NCBI GenBank assembly: GCA_048940925.1
Contig: JBHLOC010000003.1
Location: 64,001-128,000, forward strand
Origin: Promethearchaeota archaeon
GTDB taxonomy: Archaea > Asgardarchaeota > Lokiarchaeia > Sigyniarchaeales > SOKP01
Reading direction: 5' to 3'
Length of the DNA: 64,000 nucleotides
In this document: piece after piece, positions 22,252 through 34,959 of the stretch
Numbering within the stretch: the stretch's first letter is position 1
Layout: the number at the start of each line of letters is the position of its first letter
Notes under the pieces: generated by a model
Told to the model about the DNA's origin: nothing
What the model saw: only the letters and a program-made list of their open reading frames with translations
The model's database searches: none
Program-made: the position numbers and the translations under genes

Positions 22252-23376
22252 ATGAAGCCCTCTCGTAAAGCGAAGAAACGTGGAAAAAGTGCCATTATAA
22301 TTGTTTTTTTAATTGGATTCATAGTAGGTTTGCTCTCTACTAATTTCGTTCTTGAAAGTAGAAAAAAAAAAATCACTATTACAATTATCTATAGCTCTGA
22401 AAAAGCAAGCTGGATGACTATAGCATATTCAGATTTTATGTCTGAGTGGCAAAAAACACACCCTGATGAAAAAATAACCATTGATATGCATCCATATGGT
22501 TCTTCAGACTCAATAATCAGTATCTTAAATAATGAAATTTATCCAACAATTTGGAGCCCTGCAAGTTCTATTTGGTTGCCAATCTTAAATACTAAATGGA
22601 GAGATTTAACAAAAATAGAAGAACCAATTGTAAATATTAGTGAAGCTATAAAAATAATTTATTCACCAGTTGTAATTGCTACATGGCAATCTTTTAATCA
22701 ATCCTATAATATCAGAGGATTTTCTGACATTTATAATTTGAGTGTAAATCCAAATGTAGATGTTAAAATGGCTCATACAGATCCTAGATTGTCAAATTCT
22801 GGTTTTATGAGTGTTATAATGGCATTATCTGCAGCATCAGGGGTTTCTTCAGTAAATTTATCTATAGCAGAGCTCACCAACACAACTAATCAAAAATGGT
22901 TTAAAAAATTTGAATCAAGCGCAGTATTATATGGAAAATCTACTGGATTTTTAGCCCGTTATATGCAAAGTGAAGGACCCCGTGCCTTAAATATAGTGTT
23001 CTTATATGAAAATTTAATAAGGGATATTTCAAGCACATCAACAGGGGGAAAAGTTATTGCTATTTATCCTAAAGAGGGAACATTACTTAGTGATCATCCT
23101 TTTTGTATATTAAATGCTGAATGGGTAACTCCTGAACGAAGAGCCGTAGCTGAGGCTTTTCTTAATTTCCTTAATGAAAGTGATACAGTTAAATCTGCTA
23201 TTGAATATGGTTTTAGACCCATCAATCCTTCAATCCCTTTAGATCCGAATGTATTCAATTATGAAACTAATGGAATTGCTCTTGAATTTAATGTACCTAT
23301 ATTAGAGCCACCAAATGAGGGAAATGTTTTATTAAAAATCCCTGATTTTTGGCTACTTACTAAAGCAACAGGATAA
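22252..23376 (+). CDS. ABC transporter substrate-binding protein (SBP_bac_11-like), N-terminal membrane anchor
   Basis: YSSEK, WSPASS, DPRLSNSG, GKSTGFL, YPKEGTLLSDHPF, YGFRP. Confidence 0.8.
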   Translation: MKPSRKAKKRGKSAIIIVFLIGFIVGLLSTNFVLESRKKKITITIIYSSEKASWMTIAYSDFMSEWQKTHPDEKITIDMHPYGSSDSIISILNNEIYPTIWSPASSIWLPILNTKWRDLTKIEEPIVNISEAIKIIYSPVVIATWQSFNQSYNIRGFSDIYNLSVNPNVDVKMAHTDPRLSNSGFMSVIMALSAASGVSSVNLSIAELTNTTNQKWFKKFESSAVLYGKSTGFLARYMQSEGPRALNIVFLYENLIRDISSTSTGGKVIAIYPKEGTLLSDHPFCILNAEWVTPERRAVAEAFLNFLNESDTVKSAIEYGFRPINPSIPLDPNVFNYETNGIALEFNVPILEPPNEGNVLLKIPDFWLLTKATG

Positions 23377-23427
23377 TATTTAATTATTATTAAATGAAAG
23401 AAAGATTCTACTAAAAAACATCAGAGT

Positions 23428-25074
23428 ATGAGGAAAAATAAAAGCATAGATGATAGTAAATTAATACTTAGTCTAAAAATAGATAGATTTTTTTCCAAAC
23501 CAGTATATAGAAAGAGTTTAGATGTTATCACTATAGGCTTTTTTATTTTAGTAATTATTGGTCCAATAATTAACATATTTTCTACAATTCTTTTGAATAT
23601 TCCCGCAATAAACCATGATGTGTTTAATGACGAATTATTGGGCAATTTACAGTGGTTTAATATCTTAAAATCCCTTGGATATTCTTTCACAATTGCTTCT
23701 ATTGCTGTCGGAGTAGATATTATAATAGGTTTTCCTATCTCAATTATTTTAACGCGATACAATTTTAGAGGTAAAAAATTTCTTGATGCATTAGTGGATT
23801 TACCTATGGCTGTGCCTACAAGTGCGTTAGGATTTTCTGTATTGTTATTTTGGGCAGTATTTGGAATTGAACCAGGATTTACTTTAATACTTCTTGGTCA
23901 TATCGTATTCACATTTCCATATATAGTACGAAATATTAAAATTGTGCTAGAAAAGACATCTACATTATATGAAGATGCGGCTCTTACTCTTGGTGCTCCA
24001 GGATTCACTGTATTTCGAACTATTACTTTACCTTTAATGAAAGAGGGGTTAATAGCTGGAGCTATACTTTCCTTTACAAGAAGTCTAGGTGAGACAGGTG
24101 CGACACTTATACTTTCAGGTTTGATAGAAACAGCTCCAATTTTGATAGTGGGATTTAGAAGACAATTAGAACTCCCCTCTGCTTCATTATTAGCTGGAAT
24201 TTTAATTGCAATATCAATTTTACTCTTATTTTCAGTTAAATTTTTTACTCGAAAAGCTGGATTTCCAATTAAATCTGTCTGGCCAAGGATTGAACGCTTT
24301 TTAAGTCATAAATATTTAAGATATTTAAGAGATATTTTAGCTTTATTAATCCTTTTAGGTCTGATTTTATTTCCTGCCTTTTATATTATAACTCAAATTA
24401 TAGGTGAAGATTGGATATCAGAATTATTTTTAGGGCAAGATTATAAATGGGTATATCTATATATAAGTATTATATATTCAATAGAAATAGGAGCTTTAGC
24501 TGTTTTAATTAACCTTATATTTGGTATCCCATTTGCTTTCATTATTACAAAAAGAAAGTGGGGTAAAGTTATAACATTTCTTGATACCATTCTTGATATC
24601 CCAATTGCTATTCCCTCAGCAGCTTTAGGATTTGCTACTTTCTTATTTTGGGGTCCCGCAGGATTCGGACTTTTTAAATCTGGTTTTTATATGATTTTAT
24701 TTGTACATATTGCATTTACTTTTCCCTATATGGTTAGACCAATTATTGGGGTATTGGAAGCTTCAGATAAAGGAGTAGAAGAAGCTGCTCGTACTTTAGG
24801 CGCTTCTAATTTAACTGTCTTTAGAAGAATAACCCTTCCAAATATAAAGCAAGGAATCATTGCTGGATGTATCATGGTATTTACACGTTCTTTAGGAGAA
24901 ACAGGGGCTACTATTGTAGTTATGGGCAGTATTAGAACAGTGCCGGTATTAATTGTAGATTGGGTAGAAAGTAATGCGTATGCTTCCGCAATTTTTGCGA
25001 GTGTTGTCGTTATAATTATTAGTGCAATATTGATTTTTGCTTTACGAGCTGTTACAAAAAGGAGGTTAATGTAA
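23428..25074 (+). CDS. ABC importer permease, two fused ModB/CysT-like domains
   Basis: Two EAA loops (EDAALTLGA, EEAARTLGA); two DLP.A.P and FTRSLGETGAT repeats. Confidence 0.9.
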   Translation: MRKNKSIDDSKLILSLKIDRFFSKPVYRKSLDVITIGFFILVIIGPIINIFSTILLNIPAINHDVFNDELLGNLQWFNILKSLGYSFTIASIAVGVDIIIGFPISIILTRYNFRGKKFLDALVDLPMAVPTSALGFSVLLFWAVFGIEPGFTLILLGHIVFTFPYIVRNIKIVLEKTSTLYEDAALTLGAPGFTVFRTITLPLMKEGLIAGAILSFTRSLGETGATLILSGLIETAPILIVGFRRQLELPSASLLAGILIAISILLLFSVKFFTRKAGFPIKSVWPRIERFLSHKYLRYLRDILALLILLGLILFPAFYIITQIIGEDWISELFLGQDYKWVYLYISIIYSIEIGALAVLINLIFGIPFAFIITKRKWGKVITFLDTILDIPIAIPSAALGFATFLFWGPAGFGLFKSGFYMILFVHIAFTFPYMVRPIIGVLEASDKGVEEAARTLGASNLTVFRRITLPNIKQGIIAGCIMVFTRSLGETGATIVVMGSIRTVPVLIVDWVESNAYASAIFASVVVIIISAILIFALRAVTKRRLM

Positions 25075-25076
25075 AA

Positions 25077-26222
25077 GTGCCAACTATAGAATTAATTAAT
25101 GTTACAAAAACATATAATGAGGGGAGAGTTCTTGCCGTTGACAATATTTCCATAAAAATAGAAGATGGTGATTATATCTTTTTAATTGGACCTACCGGAT
25201 GTGGTAAGACAACAACACTCAGAATGATAGCAGGTTTAGAACAACCGACTAAAGGGAAAGTTTTAATAGATGGAAAAAATGTTGAGGGTATTCCTCCAGA
25301 AGATAGAGATATGGGATTTATTTTTCAAAATTTTGAAATATTCAATCATTTAACTATATGGGAAAATGTTACATTTGGCTTAGAAATGCGGGGTTATAAT
25401 GACCAGTATATTATTGATAATGCAGAAAAAGCTTTAGAAATCGTTGGTTTATTACAATATGCTGACGATTACCCAGACATTTTTGGTAACCCAGGGTTAC
25501 AGAAATTAGGAATAGCACGAGCTATTGCAATAGGTGCTAAGATTCTAATAATGGACGAGCCTTTAGGTTCTTTAGATCCAAAAATTTCGAAAGTTTTCCG
25601 TCATGAGCTTCGGAATTTAATTAAAGATTTAGGTCTTACTGCTATACATGTAACACATAACCAAGAAGAGGCAATGGCTATTGCTGATAAAATCATTATC
25701 ATGAGAGCGGGACGAATTCTTCAAATGGGAACTCCTTATGAATTATATGAAAATCCAGATACTATTTTTGTAGCCAACTTTCTAGGAGAGACTAATTTTC
25801 TTCAAGGTTTTGTCTTAAAATTACTAGATAATGAATTAATGGAAATTTGGATACGTTTAGGGGGACCTAAGTTAATTTGTCTTAATTTTAATAAGAAATT
25901 TAATTTGGATGATAATATTGTGATTTCATTTCGTTTTGAAGATGTATATTTATTTTCTAAAGATTATAATTTTGAAAAAAGTCAATATGAATGGACTAAA
26001 ATGCAATTTTTTGAAGCAATTCTAGAAACATCTAGATTTATTGGAGCTACGAAGAGATTTTATTTAATCTTAGATAATGGTGATAAATTTATATCAATTA
26101 AACCAGGAAATTTTGAAGAAAATTTTATTCCAGGAGAGAAATTAATAATTGGGATTCATCAAGATGATATCAATGTATTTAAGGCTCCAGATAACCTTCT
26201 TTATGAATTGTCATTATCATAA
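25077..26222 (+). CDS. ABC ATP-binding protein (PotA/CysA-like, TOBE), degenerate signature motif
   Basis: GPTGCGKT, FQN, MDEP, VTHN; LSGGQ replaced by FGNPG. Confidence 0.9.
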   Translation: MPTIELINVTKTYNEGRVLAVDNISIKIEDGDYIFLIGPTGCGKTTTLRMIAGLEQPTKGKVLIDGKNVEGIPPEDRDMGFIFQNFEIFNHLTIWENVTFGLEMRGYNDQYIIDNAEKALEIVGLLQYADDYPDIFGNPGLQKLGIARAIAIGAKILIMDEPLGSLDPKISKVFRHELRNLIKDLGLTAIHVTHNQEEAMAIADKIIIMRAGRILQMGTPYELYENPDTIFVANFLGETNFLQGFVLKLLDNELMEIWIRLGGPKLICLNFNKKFNLDDNIVISFRFEDVYLFSKDYNFEKSQYEWTKMQFFEAILETSRFIGATKRFYLILDNGDKFISIKPGNFEENFIPGEKLIIGIHQDDINVFKAPDNLLYELSLS

Positions 26223-26241
26223 CAAAAAAAGTATTAATATT

Positions 26242-27465
26242 ATGGTACATATAAATTTGAAAAATGTGACTAAATCTTTTAGAAATATTAAAGTTCTTAA
26301 TGAAATTTCACTTGAGATTAAAGATAAAGAGTATTTCATAATCCTTGGACCTACAGGAGCAGGTAAAACTACATTACTTAAGATTATTGCAGGACTTATT
26401 AGACCTGACTCTGGACAAATATTGTTTAATAGTAAAGATGTGACTAAAAAAACTGCGGGAGAGCGTAATATAGGATTTATGTTTGAAAATTATGCGTTAT
26501 TTCCTCACATGAATATTGTGGAGAATATATCGTATAGTGGAAGAGTCCATGCACGAGATTCCGCACAAACTCAAACCTTAGTTGATCAAATTTTGATGAT
26601 GACTTTGCTTACAGGTAGAAATGATGCTATACCTGAAGAACTAAGTGGAGGAATGAAGCAAAGAGTAGCATTATGTCGATCTCTTTTGAATCTCGAACAA
26701 TCAAAATTGTTAATTTTAGATGAGCCTCTAAAAGCGCTTGATGCTGGCCTTAGGAATAGCCTGAGAAGAGAATTGTTGCTAATGGCAAAATCAAAAGAAT
26801 TAGAATTGACAGTATTACATGTTACTAATAATGAACGTGAAGCAATGATGGTCGCCGATAGAATCGCGTTATTAAATGAAGGGAAAATAGTTCAAATTGG
26901 AAGCCCTTATGAAATCTATTATGAGCCTAAAAATCTTTTTGTAGCGTACTTTATGAGTGAAATTAACTACTTTAATGGAATTTGCGTAAAAAACACAGAG
27001 CCTAAGTGGGATATTTATCGTAAATCAGAACAAGGAGATAGATTTTTCGCACAAATTCATGAAAGTTTAGTTCCATTACCATTAGACATAGGATTAAATG
27101 AAATTTTTGCGGGATACTTGAAAGAGTCATTATATAGTGAAATTGGGCAGGGAGATAAAATATTGTTAGTTGTTCGCGCAAATCATATGAAAATACGACT
27201 TGGTAATCGTATTAACGAAAAAAAAAATTCAATTTTAGGTAAAATAATTCGACGTAAATTTATGGGAGTATTTTATCGATTTGAAGTATTAACAGAGATA
27301 AGTAATCAAGAAAAAAAAATTGTGGTTATTAGACCTGCTACTTATGAAATCCATGATAGATTTTTAGAGGGATCAGAAGTAACAGTATATTTCCCTAAAG
27401 AATTAGGAATAGTATTCAAACATCCAGGTGATGATGTAATAAAAGAAGTATTAAAATTAGAATAA
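26242..27465 (+). CDS. ABC ATP-binding protein (PotA/CysA-like), degenerate Q-loop and H-switch
   Basis: GPTGAGKT, LSGGM, LDEP; Q-loop FEN, H-switch VTNN; ATG 26242 preferred over the overlapping 26149 start. Confidence 0.9.
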   Translation: MVHINLKNVTKSFRNIKVLNEISLEIKDKEYFIILGPTGAGKTTLLKIIAGLIRPDSGQILFNSKDVTKKTAGERNIGFMFENYALFPHMNIVENISYSGRVHARDSAQTQTLVDQILMMTLLTGRNDAIPEELSGGMKQRVALCRSLLNLEQSKLLILDEPLKALDAGLRNSLRRELLLMAKSKELELTVLHVTNNEREAMMVADRIALLNEGKIVQIGSPYEIYYEPKNLFVAYFMSEINYFNGICVKNTEPKWDIYRKSEQGDRFFAQIHESLVPLPLDIGLNEIFAGYLKESLYSEIGQGDKILLVVRANHMKIRLGNRINEKKNSILGKIIRRKFMGVFYRFEVLTEISNQEKKIVVIRPATYEIHDRFLEGSEVTVYFPKELGIVFKHPGDDVIKEVLKLE

Positions 27466-27522
27466 GAATTTTAAATATTTTTAAAAATGATAACGAATAT
27501 ATAATTAAAGGAGAGTAGATTT

Positions 27523-28209
27523 ATGAGTTCCTTATTACGTTATTTTAGTACTAGAAATGAAGAAAACGCAATGAACATGACTTTAATTCATACTCAGAAA
27601 GTCCTTGAATGTATAGTTGAATTTGAGAAGGGTTTATCTTTCCTGCTTGAAGAAAAAAATATTGACCTTGCATTAAAAGTTTTTTTTAGAGTAGATGAAT
27701 TAGAACATCAAGCAGACAATATTCGTAGAAATATTCTAAATATGTTATCCCAAGCAGAACTTCCTTCGAAAATACGTGAGAATTTTATGCACCTTATTAA
27801 AAGAATTGATGATATAGCAAATGCAACAAATGCAAGTTCTAGAATTCTGATCTCTATGAATCATAAAGACTTTATGAATTTAGGGGAAGATGTTCATAAA
27901 AATATCCTAGATATCTCAAGAGATTCAGTAGAAGCTGTTAAAAAGGTTAATCTTATGGTAGATAAACTTATCAAAGCAGAAGAAGAAAAAGAAATCCAAA
28001 GTTTGGGAGAAGAAGTTAATGTTTTAGAACATGAATGTGATGAAAAGCGTTATGCAATAAATCGGAGCTTAGTTTTGAATAATCTTGATATTAACCCATT
28101 TAGTGCAATAATAATTCATAATTGTATATCTGCTATGGAGGCTATTAGTGATAACGCTGAAGATGTTGCTGATTATATTATTATGTTAACACTAGCAAAA
28201 AGAACTTAA
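27523..28209 (+). CDS. DUF47 / PhoU_div phosphate transport regulator
   Basis: LEHQAD..RR, RIDDIAN, LEHECD, EAISDNAEDVAD. Confidence 0.88.
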   Translation: MSSLLRYFSTRNEENAMNMTLIHTQKVLECIVEFEKGLSFLLEEKNIDLALKVFFRVDELEHQADNIRRNILNMLSQAELPSKIRENFMHLIKRIDDIANATNASSRILISMNHKDFMNLGEDVHKNILDISRDSVEAVKKVNLMVDKLIKAEEEKEIQSLGEEVNVLEHECDEKRYAINRSLVLNNLDINPFSAIIIHNCISAMEAISDNAEDVADYIIMLTLAKRT

Positions 28210-29015: not shown

Positions 29016-29669
29016 TTAAGAAATCTCTTTATGTTTACCAGTTACCATATAGTGAACTTTTTCAGCAATTTTACAAGCATTATCACCACATCTTTCTAAA
29101 TATCGCGCAATCATGGCAAAAAAGGCACAAGGAGTGATTGTTTTAGGATCTTCCATCATATAGGTCAAACATTCTCGAAAGATTGACCATCTCATTTCAT
29201 CAATTTCATCATCCCTCTCCTTAAATTTTTCGATGTACTTTATATCAGCCTCATCAAAAGCTTCTATTGCATTTTCAATCATCAGTTTTACATGTTCCCA
29301 CATATGTTCTAAGTTAATAAATGGGGCAGGATATGGATGTTTTTTTGAAATTTCCTCAACAACTGAAGCAATATCTTTTCCATATCTCCCAATCCTTGCA
29401 AGGTAGGTAATTGTCTTTAAAATAGTTGCTAATCTTCTGAGATCTATTGCCATTGGTTGATAAAGCGCTATTAATTTTAATGCTTTTGACTCTATATTTG
29501 CATCAAATTCTCTAATCTTATATTTCTTTTCCACCGTAGTTTTAGCTAGTTCAATATCTTGAGTCGCTAAAGCTTTCATTGAATCATCTAACATACTCAA
29601 AGCTAAATCAGCCATTTGAACAACTTCTTTTTTTAATGTAAAAATTTCTCGGTGCAATTCTTTTGCCAT
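29016..29669 (-). CDS. phoU: Phosphate signalling protein PhoU
   Basis: QPMAIDLR, LARIGRY, RYLERCGDNA; directly downstream of pstB. Confidence 0.95.
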   Translation of the reverse strand: MAKELHREIFTLKKEVVQMADLALSMLDDSMKALATQDIELAKTTVEKKYKIREFDANIESKALKLIALYQPMAIDLRRLATILKTITYLARIGRYGKDIASVVEEISKKHPYPAPFINLEHMWEHVKLMIENAIEAFDEADIKYIEKFKERDDEIDEMRWSIFRECLTYMMEDPKTITPCAFFAMIARYLERCGDNACKIAEKVHYMVTGKHKEIS

Positions 29670-29679
29670 TAAAATTCAC

Positions 29680-30450
29680 CTAACCAAATCTTCCTGTTAT
29701 ATAATTTTCAGTTAAATGTTCTTTTGGATTCTCAAATATCTGAGTTGTTTCCCCAAATTCAATTAATTCCCCTAAATACATAAAACCTGTAAAATCACTA
29801 ATTCTTGCTGCTTGTTGCATATTATGGGTTACAATTACAACAGTCCATTCTTTCTTCAATTCAAGTATTAGTTCTTCAATTTTCCCAGTAGCAATTGGAT
29901 CTAAAGCTGAACATGGTTCATCCATTAAAATTATCTCAGGTTCAACTGCTAATGCTCTAGCTATGCACAATCTTTGTTGTTGTCCACCGGAGAGACTTGC
30001 TCCAGATTTTTCTAAATCATCCTTAACTTCATCCCATAATTGTGTTAATTTTAAATATTTTTCAACCATCATTTCTAATTTTTCTCTATTTCTTGTACCC
30101 TTTAGTTTAAGACCAACTATAACATTATTAAAGATTGACATAGTTGGAAACGGATTTGGTTTTTGAAAAACCATTCCTATTTTCCTCCTAACTAAAACAG
30201 AATCAATTGATTTATAATTATTGTTATTACCATATATATTATAATTGTCCATTGAAATGCTGCCGGTTACTTTAGCATTAGGTATTAGATCATGCATTCT
30301 ATTCATACTTCTAAGTAAAGTTGTTTTACCGCATCCCGATGGACCAATAATCGCAGTAATATGGTTTTTTTTAATATTCAAATTAATATTGTTTAAAACA
30401 TGTTTATCGCTAAACCATACATTTAAATTTTCAATTTTTAATTTAATCAA
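29680..30450 (-). CDS. pstB: Phosphate ABC transporter ATPase
   Basis: [50 protein letters not shown]. Confidence 0.97.
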
Positions 30451-30462
30451 AATTCATCACAT

Positions 30463-31311
30463 CTAATATTTTTCCCTTGTTAAAATTCTAACCACGATAT
30501 TTAATAAAAGAACCAAAAATATTAAAACTAGCGCCGCACCCCAAGCTTTTGGCCAATCTATACTCACAAATGGAGATTGCGATGAGTTAAAAATTGTTAA
30601 TGGAAGCGCTGCTGTTGGCTCAAAAAAACTAGCGAAAAAGAATCTACTTCCAAGTATAGTTAATAGCAAAGGAGCTGTTTCTCCTGCTACTCTAGCAATT
30701 GCGAGTAATATGCCTGTTACTATCCCTTTTTTTGCTGTTGGAACAGTTATAGTTAAGGTTGTCTTCCATTGAGCTATTCCTAAAGCTAGAGCAGCTTCTC
30801 GAACCGTAGAAGGTACTATTTTAATAGATTCTTCTGTTGCTCTTGTTATTAAAGGAATCATCATTATTCCCAAAGCAAAACCACCAGCTAAAACTGACCA
30901 TCCCGTAATAGTTACAATCAATATCCAAGTAAAAATGCCGATAACAATTGAGGGCATGTTAGATAGAACATCATTTAAAAAACCAGCAGCAAAACTAATT
31001 TTACTATATGGATATTCTGCTAAAAAAATTCCAGAAAAAACGCCTATAGGTATTCCCAGTAAACATGCAAGCATAATTATTATTAATGTTCCTTGGATAG
31101 CAGGTCCAATTCCTCCTCCTGTTTGCCCTAATGGCGAAGTTTCTTGTGTTAAAAAATTTATATTCATTTGACTAATTCCATTAATAATAATTTCGTATAA
31201 AATGCTAATTAAAGGTATTAAACCAATAATTAGGGCAAAAAAACAGAATGATATCATTAAATAATTCTTGAATTTTCTGACTTTAAATCTTGTTTCTTCT
31301 GAAAAAGCCAT
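30463..31311 (-). CDS. pstA: Phosphate ABC transporter permease PstA
   Basis: PSIVIG, REAALALG, ARVAGETAPL; ATG 31311 preferred (track start 31326). Confidence 0.95.
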   Translation of the reverse strand: MAFSEETRFKVRKFKNYLMISFCFFALIIGLIPLISILYEIIINGISQMNINFLTQETSPLGQTGGGIGPAIQGTLIIIMLACLLGIPIGVFSGIFLAEYPYSKISFAAGFLNDVLSNMPSIVIGIFTWILIVTITGWSVLAGGFALGIMMIPLITRATEESIKIVPSTVREAALALGIAQWKTTLTITVPTAKKGIVTGILLAIARVAGETAPLLLTILGSRFFFASFFEPTAALPLTIFNSSQSPFVSIDWPKAWGAALVLIFLVLLLNIVVRILTREKY

Positions 31312-31312
31312 C

Positions 31313-32323
31313 TTAAAACGTCTCAACTCCTTTGAATTTCCTCATAGTATATCGGATTATTAATCTTGCCGTAACATTAACAATTAAAGCCATTATTAAT
31401 AATACAAATCCTACCTCAATTAAAGCTGAAAGATAAACTTCTGGAGAACTAGCCTCCGTAAATTCATTAGCTACTAATGATGCTAAAGTATAAGTAGGAT
31501 CAAATAAAGAGTGAAATAGATTAAATGAGTTTCCAATAACCATCGTTACAGCCATTGTTTCTCCTATTGCTCGACCAAGTCCTAAAATCACCGCTCCTAT
31601 CACGCCTGATCGTCCATATTTTCTAATAATTTTTGTTGACTCCCATTTTGTTGCACCTAATGCTATAATAGCTTCTTTTTGACTCTTTGGAACCGCCGCA
31701 AATATATCTCGAGAAATGGCAGTGATAGTAGGAATTATCATAATTGCTAAGATAATTCCACCTGTTAAAACATTATATCCATGAGTTGCTCCTTGAAAAA
31801 TCGGGATAAAACCAAATATATTTTGAATGACGGGATATACATTTTGATTTAAAAATGGTATAAGGGTAAATATACCCCAAAGTCCATAAATTACACTTGG
31901 TATAGCTGCTAATAGTTCTACTAGAAATGAAACCCAAAAGTTAAATCTTTTTGAAGTGAATTCAGAGAGAGTTAAAGCAATTCCTATGCTTATAGGAAAA
32001 CTTATAAGAATTGCAATTAAAGAGGTAACTAGAGTTCCTAACATCGGAGGTAAAATTCCAAATACAGGAGGAGCGTTAGGATCTGCGGGAGTTGGGTTCC
32101 ACTCGGTTCCCCAAAGAAATTCAAATCCGTAAGTTTCAATTGAAAGATAGGAACGCAAAAAAAGAAAGAGAATCATTAATCCAATTATTATAAATATTAA
32201 AAATGATATGAACCCTAAAAAAGATTTAAAAATTAAATCTCCACTAATTTTTCTTTTTAAAATGAATTTTTTTTTTTTATTTTTTTGATTATTTTTAGGG
32301 ACTATAGATAATTGTTCTTTCAT
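31313..32323 (-). CDS. pstC: Phosphate ABC transporter permease PstC
   Basis: ELLAAIPSVIYGLWG, ALGATKWE, GRAIGETMAVTMVIGN. Confidence 0.96.
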   Translation of the reverse strand: MKEQLSIVPKNNQKNKKKKFILKRKISGDLIFKSFLGFISFLIFIIIGLMILFLFLRSYLSIETYGFEFLWGTEWNPTPADPNAPPVFGILPPMLGTLVTSLIAILISFPISIGIALTLSEFTSKRFNFWVSFLVELLAAIPSVIYGLWGIFTLIPFLNQNVYPVIQNIFGFIPIFQGATHGYNVLTGGIILAIMIIPTITAISRDIFAAVPKSQKEAIIALGATKWESTKIIRKYGRSGVIGAVILGLGRAIGETMAVTMVIGNSFNLFHSLFDPTYTLASLVANEFTEASSPEVYLSALIEVGFVLLIMALIVNVTARLIIRYTMRKFKGVETF

Positions 32324-32410
32324 TAGGCTTTTTATACCATTAAACTATTAAGATATCTTTTGAGTTTCAAAATAAAATACAAAAAAAAATATTATTAAAT
32401 TACTAATTCA

Positions 32411-33532
32411 TTATGCCCAAGTATTTACGATTTCCCCATCAAATATTATAGAACGTAAACTCACTTCATTTATCGCTATTACCGCATCAGGAATTTCAAC
32501 ATAGTGTAAGCCTTCCGCGTAGGATTGAGCTTGATGAGTACACCACCATAACCAATTTGTTAAAGCCTTTGCTTTTGCTAATGTCATACCAGGAATTACA
32601 TTCAGTTCCTTATAAACTAGTATATAAGAAAATGAAGAAATAGGATAAGCATCTCCAGCTCCAGGACCAGTTTTAAAATAAGTGCCAACAGGTTCCCAAT
32701 TTTCATCGCCAGCAGGTAAAGTAACAGCAGCATAAGCTGCTGCTTTTGCTATTGTTGTAGTATTAGCTAACGAATAAATTCCAGCTCTATTTTGAATTAA
32801 AGCATAATCAATACCACTTTCAAGTGCGTATGCTAATTCAATATAACCAAGTGAATATTCATTAGCTTGAAGATATGCCGCAATACCAGAATTTCCTTTT
32901 TGACCTAAAGTATCTGCATGCCAATCTATGGTTTTGGATGCCCCATACGTAGAATTCCACATTGCACTCTCATCAGATAAAAAGGTGGTAAATACAGCTG
33001 TAGATCCACTTGAATCTGATCTGTGAACAACAGTTATTTCATGACTTGGTAAAGTAACTGCAGGATTCAAAGCGGTTAAGTTGGCATGATCCCACATGGT
33101 AATCAACCTCGCAAATATTTGGGCGATTACAGGTCCAGTTAAATTAATAGGTACTGATATTCCCGGAAGATTATAAGCAACTAAAATTCCTCCTATTGTC
33201 ATGGGTAATTGTAAAGTATTCGGCGCTGCTTCCCATTCAGATGTCTTCATTGGTGGATCTGAAGCACCAAAATCTACTGTTTTTGCAGTATGTTGCTGAA
33301 TTCCCCCACCACTACCAATACCCTCATAGTCCACTTGGATTCCTGTGAGACTATTAAACTCTAAAGACCATTTTTGATATAGAGGTGCTGGGAAAGTAGC
33401 ACCTGCTCCACTGAGTCTCATTGGCGTCTCAGGTTGAGTTAGAACAAACATTCCAGCACTAAACCCAATCACCGTTCCAACTAAGGCAATTGCTAAAATA
33501 TATATTATTGATCGTTCTCGCATTTTAAACAC
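32411..33532 (-). CDS. pstS: Phosphate-binding protein PstS
   Basis: GAGATFPAPLY, GSGGG, DFGASD, RSDSSGST, YPISSF; start may be ATG 33523. Confidence 0.96.
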   Translation of the reverse strand: MFKMRERSIIYILAIALVGTVIGFSAGMFVLTQPETPMRLSGAGATFPAPLYQKWSLEFNSLTGIQVDYEGIGSGGGIQQHTAKTVDFGASDPPMKTSEWEAAPNTLQLPMTIGGILVAYNLPGISVPINLTGPVIAQIFARLITMWDHANLTALNPAVTLPSHEITVVHRSDSSGSTAVFTTFLSDESAMWNSTYGASKTIDWHADTLGQKGNSGIAAYLQANEYSLGYIELAYALESGIDYALIQNRAGIYSLANTTTIAKAAAYAAVTLPAGDENWEPVGTYFKTGPGAGDAYPISSFSYILVYKELNVIPGMTLAKAKALTNWLWWCTHQAQSYAEGLHYVEIPDAVIAINEVSLRSIIFDGEIVNTWA

Positions 33533-33954: not shown

Positions 33955-34959
33955 ATGAGTTTACATATAGAGACAAGAAAAGTTCAGAAGACAGGTGGAT
34001 CCAGTTATATCATTTCCCTTCCTAAAGTATGGATAGATAAGCATGGTGTTGAAAAGAATGATACATTAGGTATTCTTAGCCAACCAGATGGGAATTTACT
34101 TATTACTCCCAAGATAAATTCTGAAGAATATATAAGAAGTAAAATCTTTGATATTGATGAAGTAACCGATTCACAGTATTTATTTCGGCTTTTAATCGGA
34201 GCCTATATTATGGGTTATACTATTATAACAATAAAATCAAGTAAGAAGTTTGAACCTTTTATAAGAGAATGCGTTACAAATTTCACCCAAATTGCTATAG
34301 GTCCAGAAATCATAGAAGAATCTAATAATTTCATAACTATAAAAGATTTGCTTAATCCTAAGGAAATGCCATTTGAAAAGACAATAAAAAGGATGTATAT
34401 TTTGGTCCAAAGTATGCATGAAGATGCTATAAAAGCCCTTGATACAGGGGATAAGCCTTTAGCAGAAGAAATTATTAAGAGGGACGATGATGTTGATAGA
34501 CTACACTGGTTAATCGGTCGTCAGGCTCATATTGTGCTCAGAGACATTATTTTATGTCAAAAAATGGGGATTACATTGGAACAAGCGAGTCATTTTCATC
34601 AGATGAGCCGTTTTTTAGAAAGGATAGGAGATCACGCCTCAAAGATTGCAAAGAATGTGTTAATCATTCTAGAACATAAAATTGATGAACAACTTAATAA
34701 AGAAATCAAAGTAGCAAGTAAAGTATCGTTGGACTTATTAAATAAAAGCCTTGATGCATGGCTTCAAAAAAGTATTACTTTAGCGAATGAAAATATTGAA
34801 GAAATAAGGGATTTGATCTCAACTACCGAAAAAATAAGTCTTAATACCAATGGCAGTGCTCAAGTTTCAATAGCAATAGGATACATTCTTGAATCTATAA
34901 GGAGAACTAGTGAATATGCGGGAGATATATGTGAAATTATAATTAATAATTTAATATAA
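33955..34959 (+). CDS. Archaeal phosphate uptake regulator (AbrB/SpoVT DNA-binding domain + PhoU domains)
   Basis: RKVQKTGGSSYIISLPKVW; RDDDVDRL, LERIGDHA; divergent from pstS. Confidence 0.93.
   Translation: MSLHIETRKVQKTGGSSYIISLPKVWIDKHGVEKNDTLGILSQPDGNLLITPKINSEEYIRSKIFDIDEVTDSQYLFRLLIGAYIMGYTIITIKSSKKFEPFIRECVTNFTQIAIGPEIIEESNNFITIKDLLNPKEMPFEKTIKRMYILVQSMHEDAIKALDTGDKPLAEEIIKRDDDVDRLHWLIGRQAHIVLRDIILCQKMGITLEQASHFHQMSRFLERIGDHASKIAKNVLIILEHKIDEQLNKEIKVASKVSLDLLNKSLDAWLQKSITLANENIEEIRDLISTTEKISLNTNGSAQVSIAIGYILESIRRTSEYAGDICEIIINNLI

Follow-up and report, generated by a model that had tools for sequence, protein, structure and literature searches.

Why should an archaeal importer be encoded with two different ATPases, each keeping motifs that the other has lost? 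The question is raised by a cassette of five genes in a window of 64,000 nucleotides from a Promethearchaeota archaeon of the Lokiarchaeia (positions 64,001 to 128,000, forward strand, of contig JBHLOC010000003.1, assembly GCA_048940925.1). Arranged head to tail on the + strand, at 22252-28209 of the window, the genes encode, in order, a substrate-binding protein (SBP), a permease, two ATP-binding cassette (ABC) ATPases, here called NBD-A and NBD-B after their nucleotide-binding domains (NBDs), and a DUF47 protein. An initial annotation, made from the letters of the sequence, had proposed that the defects of the two ATPases, its NBD1 and NBD2, all meet in one of two composite ATP sites. The asymmetric architecture itself is, in our judgement, very likely, and the evidence for it comes from the motifs of the pair and from their conservation in relatives.

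Both proteins are full ABC ATPases (PF00005 E-values of 7.8e-26 and 1.7e-31) that match solved ATPases of the CysA/MalK/PotA type at E-values of 1e-59 to 1e-61, and they are 36% identical to each other. Motifs were placed by residue-level alignment to solved importer ATPases (1z47, 9j4r, 2it1 and PotA) and of NBD-A to NBD-B. Walker A (GPTGCGKT), the Q-loop (FQN), Walker B (IMDEP) and the H-loop (VTHN) of NBD-A are intact, but FGNPG is aligned to the LSGGQ signature. NBD-B keeps its signature (LSGGM), Walker A (GPTGAGKT), the Asp-Glu of Walker B (ILDEP) and the D-loop, and it carries Glu for Gln in the Q-loop (FEN) and Asn for His in the H-loop (VTNN); the alignments bear out what the initial annotation had read in both proteins. 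Each ATP site of an ABC dimer pairs the signature of one subunit with the Walker, Q and H elements of its partner, and therefore all three deviations fall in one site, between the P-loop side of NBD-B and the signature of NBD-A. The reciprocal site, between the P-loop side of NBD-A and the LSGGM of NBD-B, is fully canonical. Neither site of an A/A dimer would have a signature, and neither site of a B/B dimer the Q-loop Gln or the switch His; as read from the motifs, a canonical site is available only in the A/B heterodimer.

Is this asymmetry a peculiarity of one genome? It is invariant in 18-20 orthologous pairs from the same taxonomic order, at 47-87% identity for NBD-A and 38-80% for NBD-B. 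When 185,579 species genomes were scanned by pattern, 233 relatives emerged, from which 80 loci were kept; all 80 are archaeal, and they come from several Asgard lineages, among them Candidatus Lokiarchaeum ossiferum (L129), and from more than 10 metagenome-assembled genomes of Bathyarchaeia. Once duplicates had been removed, 77 distinct ATPase pairs were scored, drawn from Asgard archaea and Bathyarchaeia. The Walker A Lys, Q-loop Gln, Walker B Asp-Glu and switch His of NBD-A are present in 76/76 readable copies, and its signature is degenerate in 75 copies, reading FGNPG, WGNGD, LSAPE/D, LGAPG, LDAAD and others. The mirror image is seen in NBD-B: xSGG[M/Q] is retained in 76 of the 77 copies, the Q-loop Gln is replaced in 75 (by Glu in 74 and Ala in 1), the switch His has become Asn or Gln in 62, and the Walker B Glu has become Asp or Gln in 14. 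Glu in a deviant Q-loop is known also from yeast Pdr5. The Walker A Lys of NBD-B is present in 75/77 copies and lost in 2/77, and the A-loop aromatic residue is retained in 65/77. Parsimony on a tree of 65 proteins counts at least 11 changes at the Walker A, Q, Walker B and H positions of NBD-B, and none at these positions of NBD-A or in the NBD-B signature. Everything that decays thus belongs to one composite site, and the direction is uniform across the family.

The initial annotation had left room for substitutions private to this genome; instead the complementary degeneracy is co-conserved in every orthologous pair examined, at 38-87% identity. Decay or sequencing error was considered as the cause and rejected, since the substitutions are conserved across relatives. 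The sequence pattern, met again in 77 distinct pairs of two archaeal phyla, is far beyond chance. NBD-B is less conserved than NBD-A in 81/87 loci and is clearly still under selection; this and the retained A-loop aromatic residue fit a subunit that still binds nucleotide. Two Heimdall-type genomes (loci L067 and L077 of G087 and G091) have lost the Walker A Lys of NBD-B (GPSNGGPSF and GPSGEGPSV) and read DQ at Walker B, and the degenerate site of this lineage may not bind ATP at all.

How might such a pair have arisen? The ATPases of the cassette family form a clade, starred in the tree, that is separate from ordinary PotA/CysA-like ATPases of the LSGGQ type. Within it, the NBD-A copies make up one clade (support 87) next to the ATPases of loci with a single ATPase, and 19 strongly degenerate NBD-B copies make up another starred clade, with the B copy of locus L136 just outside. 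Three Bathyarchaeia loci (L137, L142 and L150) combine the SBP, the fused permease and DUF47 with one ATPase that is fully canonical (Q, LSGGM, DE, H). By its motifs this cassette is the natural homodimeric counterpart of the asymmetric system, and it matches, within the family itself, the statement of the initial annotation that importers of this type are normally homodimeric. At L136 the B copy keeps Gln and His, and the signature of its partner is already LSFGE. A parallel pairing occurs at L066 (G046:C198), where a canonical LSGGM ATPase comes first and an LSRGA ATPase second, and this type may, on its motifs, be a second and milder asymmetric lineage. The second ATPases of the L066 type (P0137, P0139, P0143 and P0145) have the signature LSRGxQQK or LSGGAQQK, with relatives (the 'K' group) in Thermoprotei.

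The natural series therefore runs from one canonical ATPase (L137, L142, L150), through a lost signature with the Q and H of the partner kept (L136 and the L066 type), to the loss of Q, H, Walker B and Walker A. The simplest reading of this series is that a homodimeric ATPase gene was duplicated, that one signature was then lost, and that the catalytic residues of the partner were then eroded. A locus with an NBD-A orthologue alone, L026 (G033:C1, 10900-12400), was considered as a counter-example and rejected as broken or chimeric: its assembly is 63% complete, and past about residue 330 the orthologue runs into compositionally foreign, ORF-poor sequence with overlapping open reading frames (ORFs), with neither NBD-B nor DUF47 downstream. 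It is the only locus with a single NBD-A, and frequent frameshifts or loss of one ATPase gene were not seen among the relatives.

What does the cassette import? The PF00528 permease with its EAA loops, the co-encoded anchored SBP and the ATPases of the CysA/MalK/PotA class are those of a type I importer. The best NCBIfam matches of the permease are sulfate and molybdate permeases, with scores far under the Pst, Pot and Phn cut-offs, and it misses every equivalog cut-off that is not aided by summing over its two fused halves. The AlphaFold model of the SBP (predicted local distance difference test score, pLDDT, 92) has a two-lobe fold with an anchor helix at residues 11-36, and a fold search matches it best to the sulfate-binding proteins 5um2 and 1sbp, followed by AfuA and PotD/F, which are generic cluster-D SBPs. 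Comparison of the SBP with PDB sequences gave no significant match, and no NCBIfam model matched it. Its invariant residues lie in Ser/Thr-rich loops at helix N-termini (SPASS, HTDPxLSNSG and YGKSTGF), and these loops would line the ligand pocket; Sbp, ModA and PstS hold oxyanions through such helix-N-terminal loops. On sequence and fold comparison, the system is a type I importer, probably of a small anion, and stands outside every curated subfamily. The SBP is also its most specific marker, being present in 119/400 Asgard genomes and 41/85 genera, and the five-gene cassette is syntenic across the phylum. The named sequence relatives retrieved are all archaeal. Look-alike SBP clusters from Chloroflexota and other bacteria are present in the ESM Atlas. 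One SBP orthologue (G273:C19:18097-19182) lies within an open frame of 902 aa, the usual length being 375-430 aa, and may be fused with a neighbouring gene or domain.

The surroundings of the cassette point to phosphorus. DUF47 lies within 6.5 kb of it in 68/78 distinct loci and immediately downstream in 58, and the 4.8-Mb genome has only about 4 DUF47 genes. Within 19 kb of the cassette the window holds genes for a type I phosphodiesterase, an inorganic pyrophosphatase, PhoU-PstBAC-PstS, a fusion of an AbrB/MazE-type DNA-binding domain with a PhoU domain (AbrB-PhoU), and a DUF47-Pit pair; the genuine Pst operon is 0.8 kb away. Homologues of the AbrB-PhoU gene stand beside the cassette in 16/78 loci, and the fusion is a candidate regulator of phosphate genes. 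Directly upstream of the Pit (PF01384) gene, which precedes its DUF47 gene, is an ORF of 223 aa without a Pfam match that may encode a very divergent PhoU-fold partner. DUF47 adjacency and the phosphate-gene neighbourhood favour a phosphorus-containing anion, which at about even chances is the most likely candidate cargo, with sulfate-, molybdate- or tungstate-type anions as the alternatives. Against a phosphorus cargo stand the closest SBP folds, which are sulfate binders, the nearness of the permease to sulfate and molybdate families, the 10/78 loci without a nearby DUF47, and the conservation of the pyrophosphatase and phosphodiesterase neighbours within the genus only.

We propose, with considerable though not full confidence, that the whole system is a type I importer driven by an obligate A/B heterodimer with one hydrolytic and one degenerate site. 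Site 1, made of Walker A/B, the Q-loop and the switch His of NBD-A and the LSGGM of NBD-B, would carry out ATP hydrolysis. Site 2, made of Walker A/B, the Glu Q-loop and the Asn switch of NBD-B and the FGNPG of NBD-A, would be degenerate; it most likely still binds ATP, as proposed from the Walker A Lys and A-loop aromatic residue that are mostly retained, and probably hydrolyses it poorly or not at all. Site 2 could then serve as a stable latch or an allosteric site, with one ATP spent per cycle. The pair would have been born within the cassette family by duplication of a single canonical ATPase gene, with relaxed selection eroding site 2 stepwise. The cargo would probably be a small, phosphorus-related oxyanion, and the PhoU-like DUF47 protein, by analogy with PhoU acting on PstB, would probably modulate the ATPases.

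Several points weigh against this model. The pairing of A with B and its orientation on the fused permease are deduced from the site logic and gene adjacency. Asn for His and Glu for Gln may leave some activity, site 2 then being slow rather than dead, and NBD-B of this genome still has its catalytic Walker B Glu. The loci are mutually related, and their counts are not independent. The tree is that of a quick IQ-TREE search with SH-aLRT supports, its root was set by the chosen outgroup, the order of evolutionary events depends on that rooting, and the B clade including L136 has a support of only 56.

The asymmetric pair could also have been put to another use. It is possible, although we think it unlikely, that the cassette is a third, archaeal-type uptake system for phosphorus anions whose degenerate site is a regulatory nucleotide sensor, gating uptake together with DUF47 by ATP or phosphate status; in that case the evolution of such a site in an importer would be preserved in the series from homodimeric to strongly asymmetric forms. 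We give less credence still to a complex that is mainly a sensor, akin to the transporter-like sensor that the initial annotation offered as its alternative, with the SBP and permease reporting substrate, the degenerate site and DUF47 holding a signalling state, a PhoU-domain transcription factor receiving it, and transport being minor. PstSCAB-PhoU is known to signal, DUF47 or PhoU-fold partners adjoin most loci, AbrB-PhoU fusions occur in the window and elsewhere, and the genome already has Pst and Pit. However, conservation of the kind seen in working importers extends to the consensus site, both EAA loops, the anchored SBP and the TOBE-like domains. The cassette also occurs in canonical versions with one ATPase, and no signalling output domain was identified on the transporter.

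Are the substitutions simply tolerated, leaving both ATP sites catalytically competent and two ATP spent per cycle, as in other type I importers? The Walker motifs and D-loop that NBD-B keeps here would allow it, and Glu could in principle coordinate Mg2+ or water as Gln does, but FGNPG is without the Ser and Gly-Gly that contact the gamma-phosphate. Furthermore, in other lineages site 2 also gives up the Walker A Lys (2/77) or the catalytic Glu (14/77), and site 1 never changes; this is what release from selection for catalysis would leave behind, and we regard two competent sites as improbable. That one gene is a decaying duplicate, the pump running on a homodimer of the other, is hardly credible: NBD-B does evolve somewhat faster than NBD-A, but 77 distinct loci, with identities down to 38%, have the two genes side by side, intact and at full length, neither homodimer has a canonical site, and the almost invariant NBD-B signature is relevant only if it completes the NBD-A site.

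The features of the cassette and its surroundings are collected in the table. NBD-A starts at a GTG, 2 nt past the permease stop and with AGGAGG ahead of it, and ends with TAA at 26220-26222. The NBD-B ORF as listed begins at TTG 26149 and overlaps NBD-A; its real start is almost certainly the ATG at 26242, 19 nt after the NBD-A stop, because that Met is where the alignments with solved structures and with the N-termini of homologues begin. The two genes are separate and lie in different frames. The TOBE_2-like C-terminal domains are weak in both proteins, scoring 18.6 and 19.7 bits where the cut-off is 21. The nearest proteins are from Promethearchaeota or Lokiarchaeia and are always labelled with the generic 'ABC transporter ATP-binding protein'. 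Comparison of the DUF47 protein with PDB sequences gave weak matches to 2iiu/2olt and to 3l39, 'PhoU-like'. The DUF47 gene might have its own promoter in the spacer that precedes it.

Features of the five-gene cassette and its surroundings, in window coordinates (E, Pfam E-value)
Feature	Position	Strand	Remarks
SBP, N-terminal membrane anchor, 374 aa	22252..23376	+	PF13531, E 5e-13; divergent member of the sulfate/molybdate-type SBP group
Fused permease, 548 aa	23428..25074	+	two BPD_transp_1 domains (CysT/CysW/ModB-like), EAA loop in each; PF00528, E 5.5e-31, two stretches
NBD-A (= NBD1)	25077..26222	+	canonical Walker A/B, Q-loop and H-switch; signature FGNPG; weak TOBE-like C-terminal domain
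NBD-B (= NBD2)	26242..27465	+	LSGGM, Walker A and Walker B intact; Q-loop Q->E, H-switch H->N; weak TOBE-like C-terminal domain
Spacer NBD-B/DUF47, 57 nt	27466..27522		A/T-rich, TATA-like runs, GGAG before ATG
DUF47 / PhoU_div protein	27523..28209	+	PF01865, E 9e-20; putative regulatory partner of the transporter
ORF, 206 aa	28244..28864	-	no Pfam match; 75-80% identical copies at or near the cassette in three same-genus genomes
Pst operon	29016..33532		genuine Pst genes
AbrB-PhoU fusion gene	33955..34959	+	AbrB/MazE-type DNA-binding domain and PhoU domain
ORF, 223 aa	36861..37532	-	no Pfam match

Almost all work on degenerate ATP sites has been done on exporters, and an importer family with such a site bears on whether one hydrolytic site suffices for import, on the ratio of ATP to substrate, and on what the degenerate site contributes. 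The family has built-in controls in its homodimeric canonical forms, the forms that have lost only a signature, and those without the catalytic Glu or the Walker A Lys. As an uptake system it has gone unannotated in Asgard archaea and Bathyarchaeia, where it is widespread; one of its carriers, Candidatus Lokiarchaeum ossiferum, is in culture. Through its link to PhoU-fold proteins it is relevant to how the archaea closest to eukaryotes acquire nutrients.

Where does the cassette stand among known transporters? PstSCAB-PhoU is likewise an oxyanion importer with a PhoU-fold accessory protein at the end of its operon, but its PstS belongs to PF12849, PstC and PstA are separate genes and the accessory protein is PhoU proper, whereas the SBP and accessory protein of the cassette are of PF13531 and DUF47; the NCBIfam scores are 80 for PstC (cut-off 196), 70 for PstA (193) and 128 for PstB (343). 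The CysPTWA and ModABC/WtpABC systems are closer: they include the closest permease families and SBP folds, and their ATPases are of the same class with C-terminal TOBE-type domains. However, their ATPase is a homodimer and their permease genes are separate or single, unlike the fused permease, two ATPases and DUF47 found here, where the form with one ATPase gene is confined to the three Bathyarchaeia relatives. The permease falls short of the cut-offs for CysT (204/246), CysW (180/329) and WtpB (201/340), as do NBD-A and NBD-B for CysA (224 and 227 against 502) and WtpC (217 and 235 against 440); only the broad TIGR00969 (241.3 against 240) and ModB TIGR02141 (211.5 against 182.6) are passed, in both cases by sums over two fused halves. 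A survey of Asgard transporters mentions SulT-family homologues and does not mention the asymmetric ATPase feature (PMC7997004).

The initial annotation suggested an undescribed type I importer with a single active site. This stands for separate heterodimeric ATPases with a degenerate site, of which no description was found in the literature searched, its coverage being incomplete and absence not proven. It does not extend to degenerate sites in importers at large: the fused RbsA/NupO ATPases of B. subtilis are a published precedent, with one degenerate site likewise noted from sequence, where a signature is deviant and the Walker A Lys of the second half is missing (PMC11466899). RbsA and NupO, however, are bacterial, have their NBDs fused in one polypeptide and work with the permeases RbsC and NupPQ; NBD-A and NBD-B are separate proteins, and homology with the cassette is limited to the ABC domain.

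The nearest likeness in ATPase logic is to the heterodimeric exporters and channels TM287/288, TmrAB, BmrCD, TAP1/2, CFTR and MsRv1273c/72c (PMC3971661, PMC7756269, PMC12038006), which have the same two non-identical NBDs with deviations in one site and a canonical other. Reviews report degenerate sites to be frequent in exporters and treat them as an exporter feature (PMC3971661, PMC7756269); the initial annotation had recognised the pattern as familiar from exporters and channels. Even the mapping is the same: the deviations of the exporters lie in the signature of one subunit and in the Q-loop, the H-switch and sometimes the Walker B (Glu to Asp) of the other, and the Glu to Asp change reported for TM287/288 (PMC3971661) recurs in some lineages of the cassette family. 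The exporters have the type IV fold with NBDs fused to the transmembrane domains, whereas the cassette has a type I permease of PF00528, an external SBP and a PhoU-like partner, and its ATPases, with their TOBE-like tails, are encoded by genes of their own. Judged on sequence features, the system is not a member of the exporter family, and its likeness to the exporters is at the level of the ATPase dimer.

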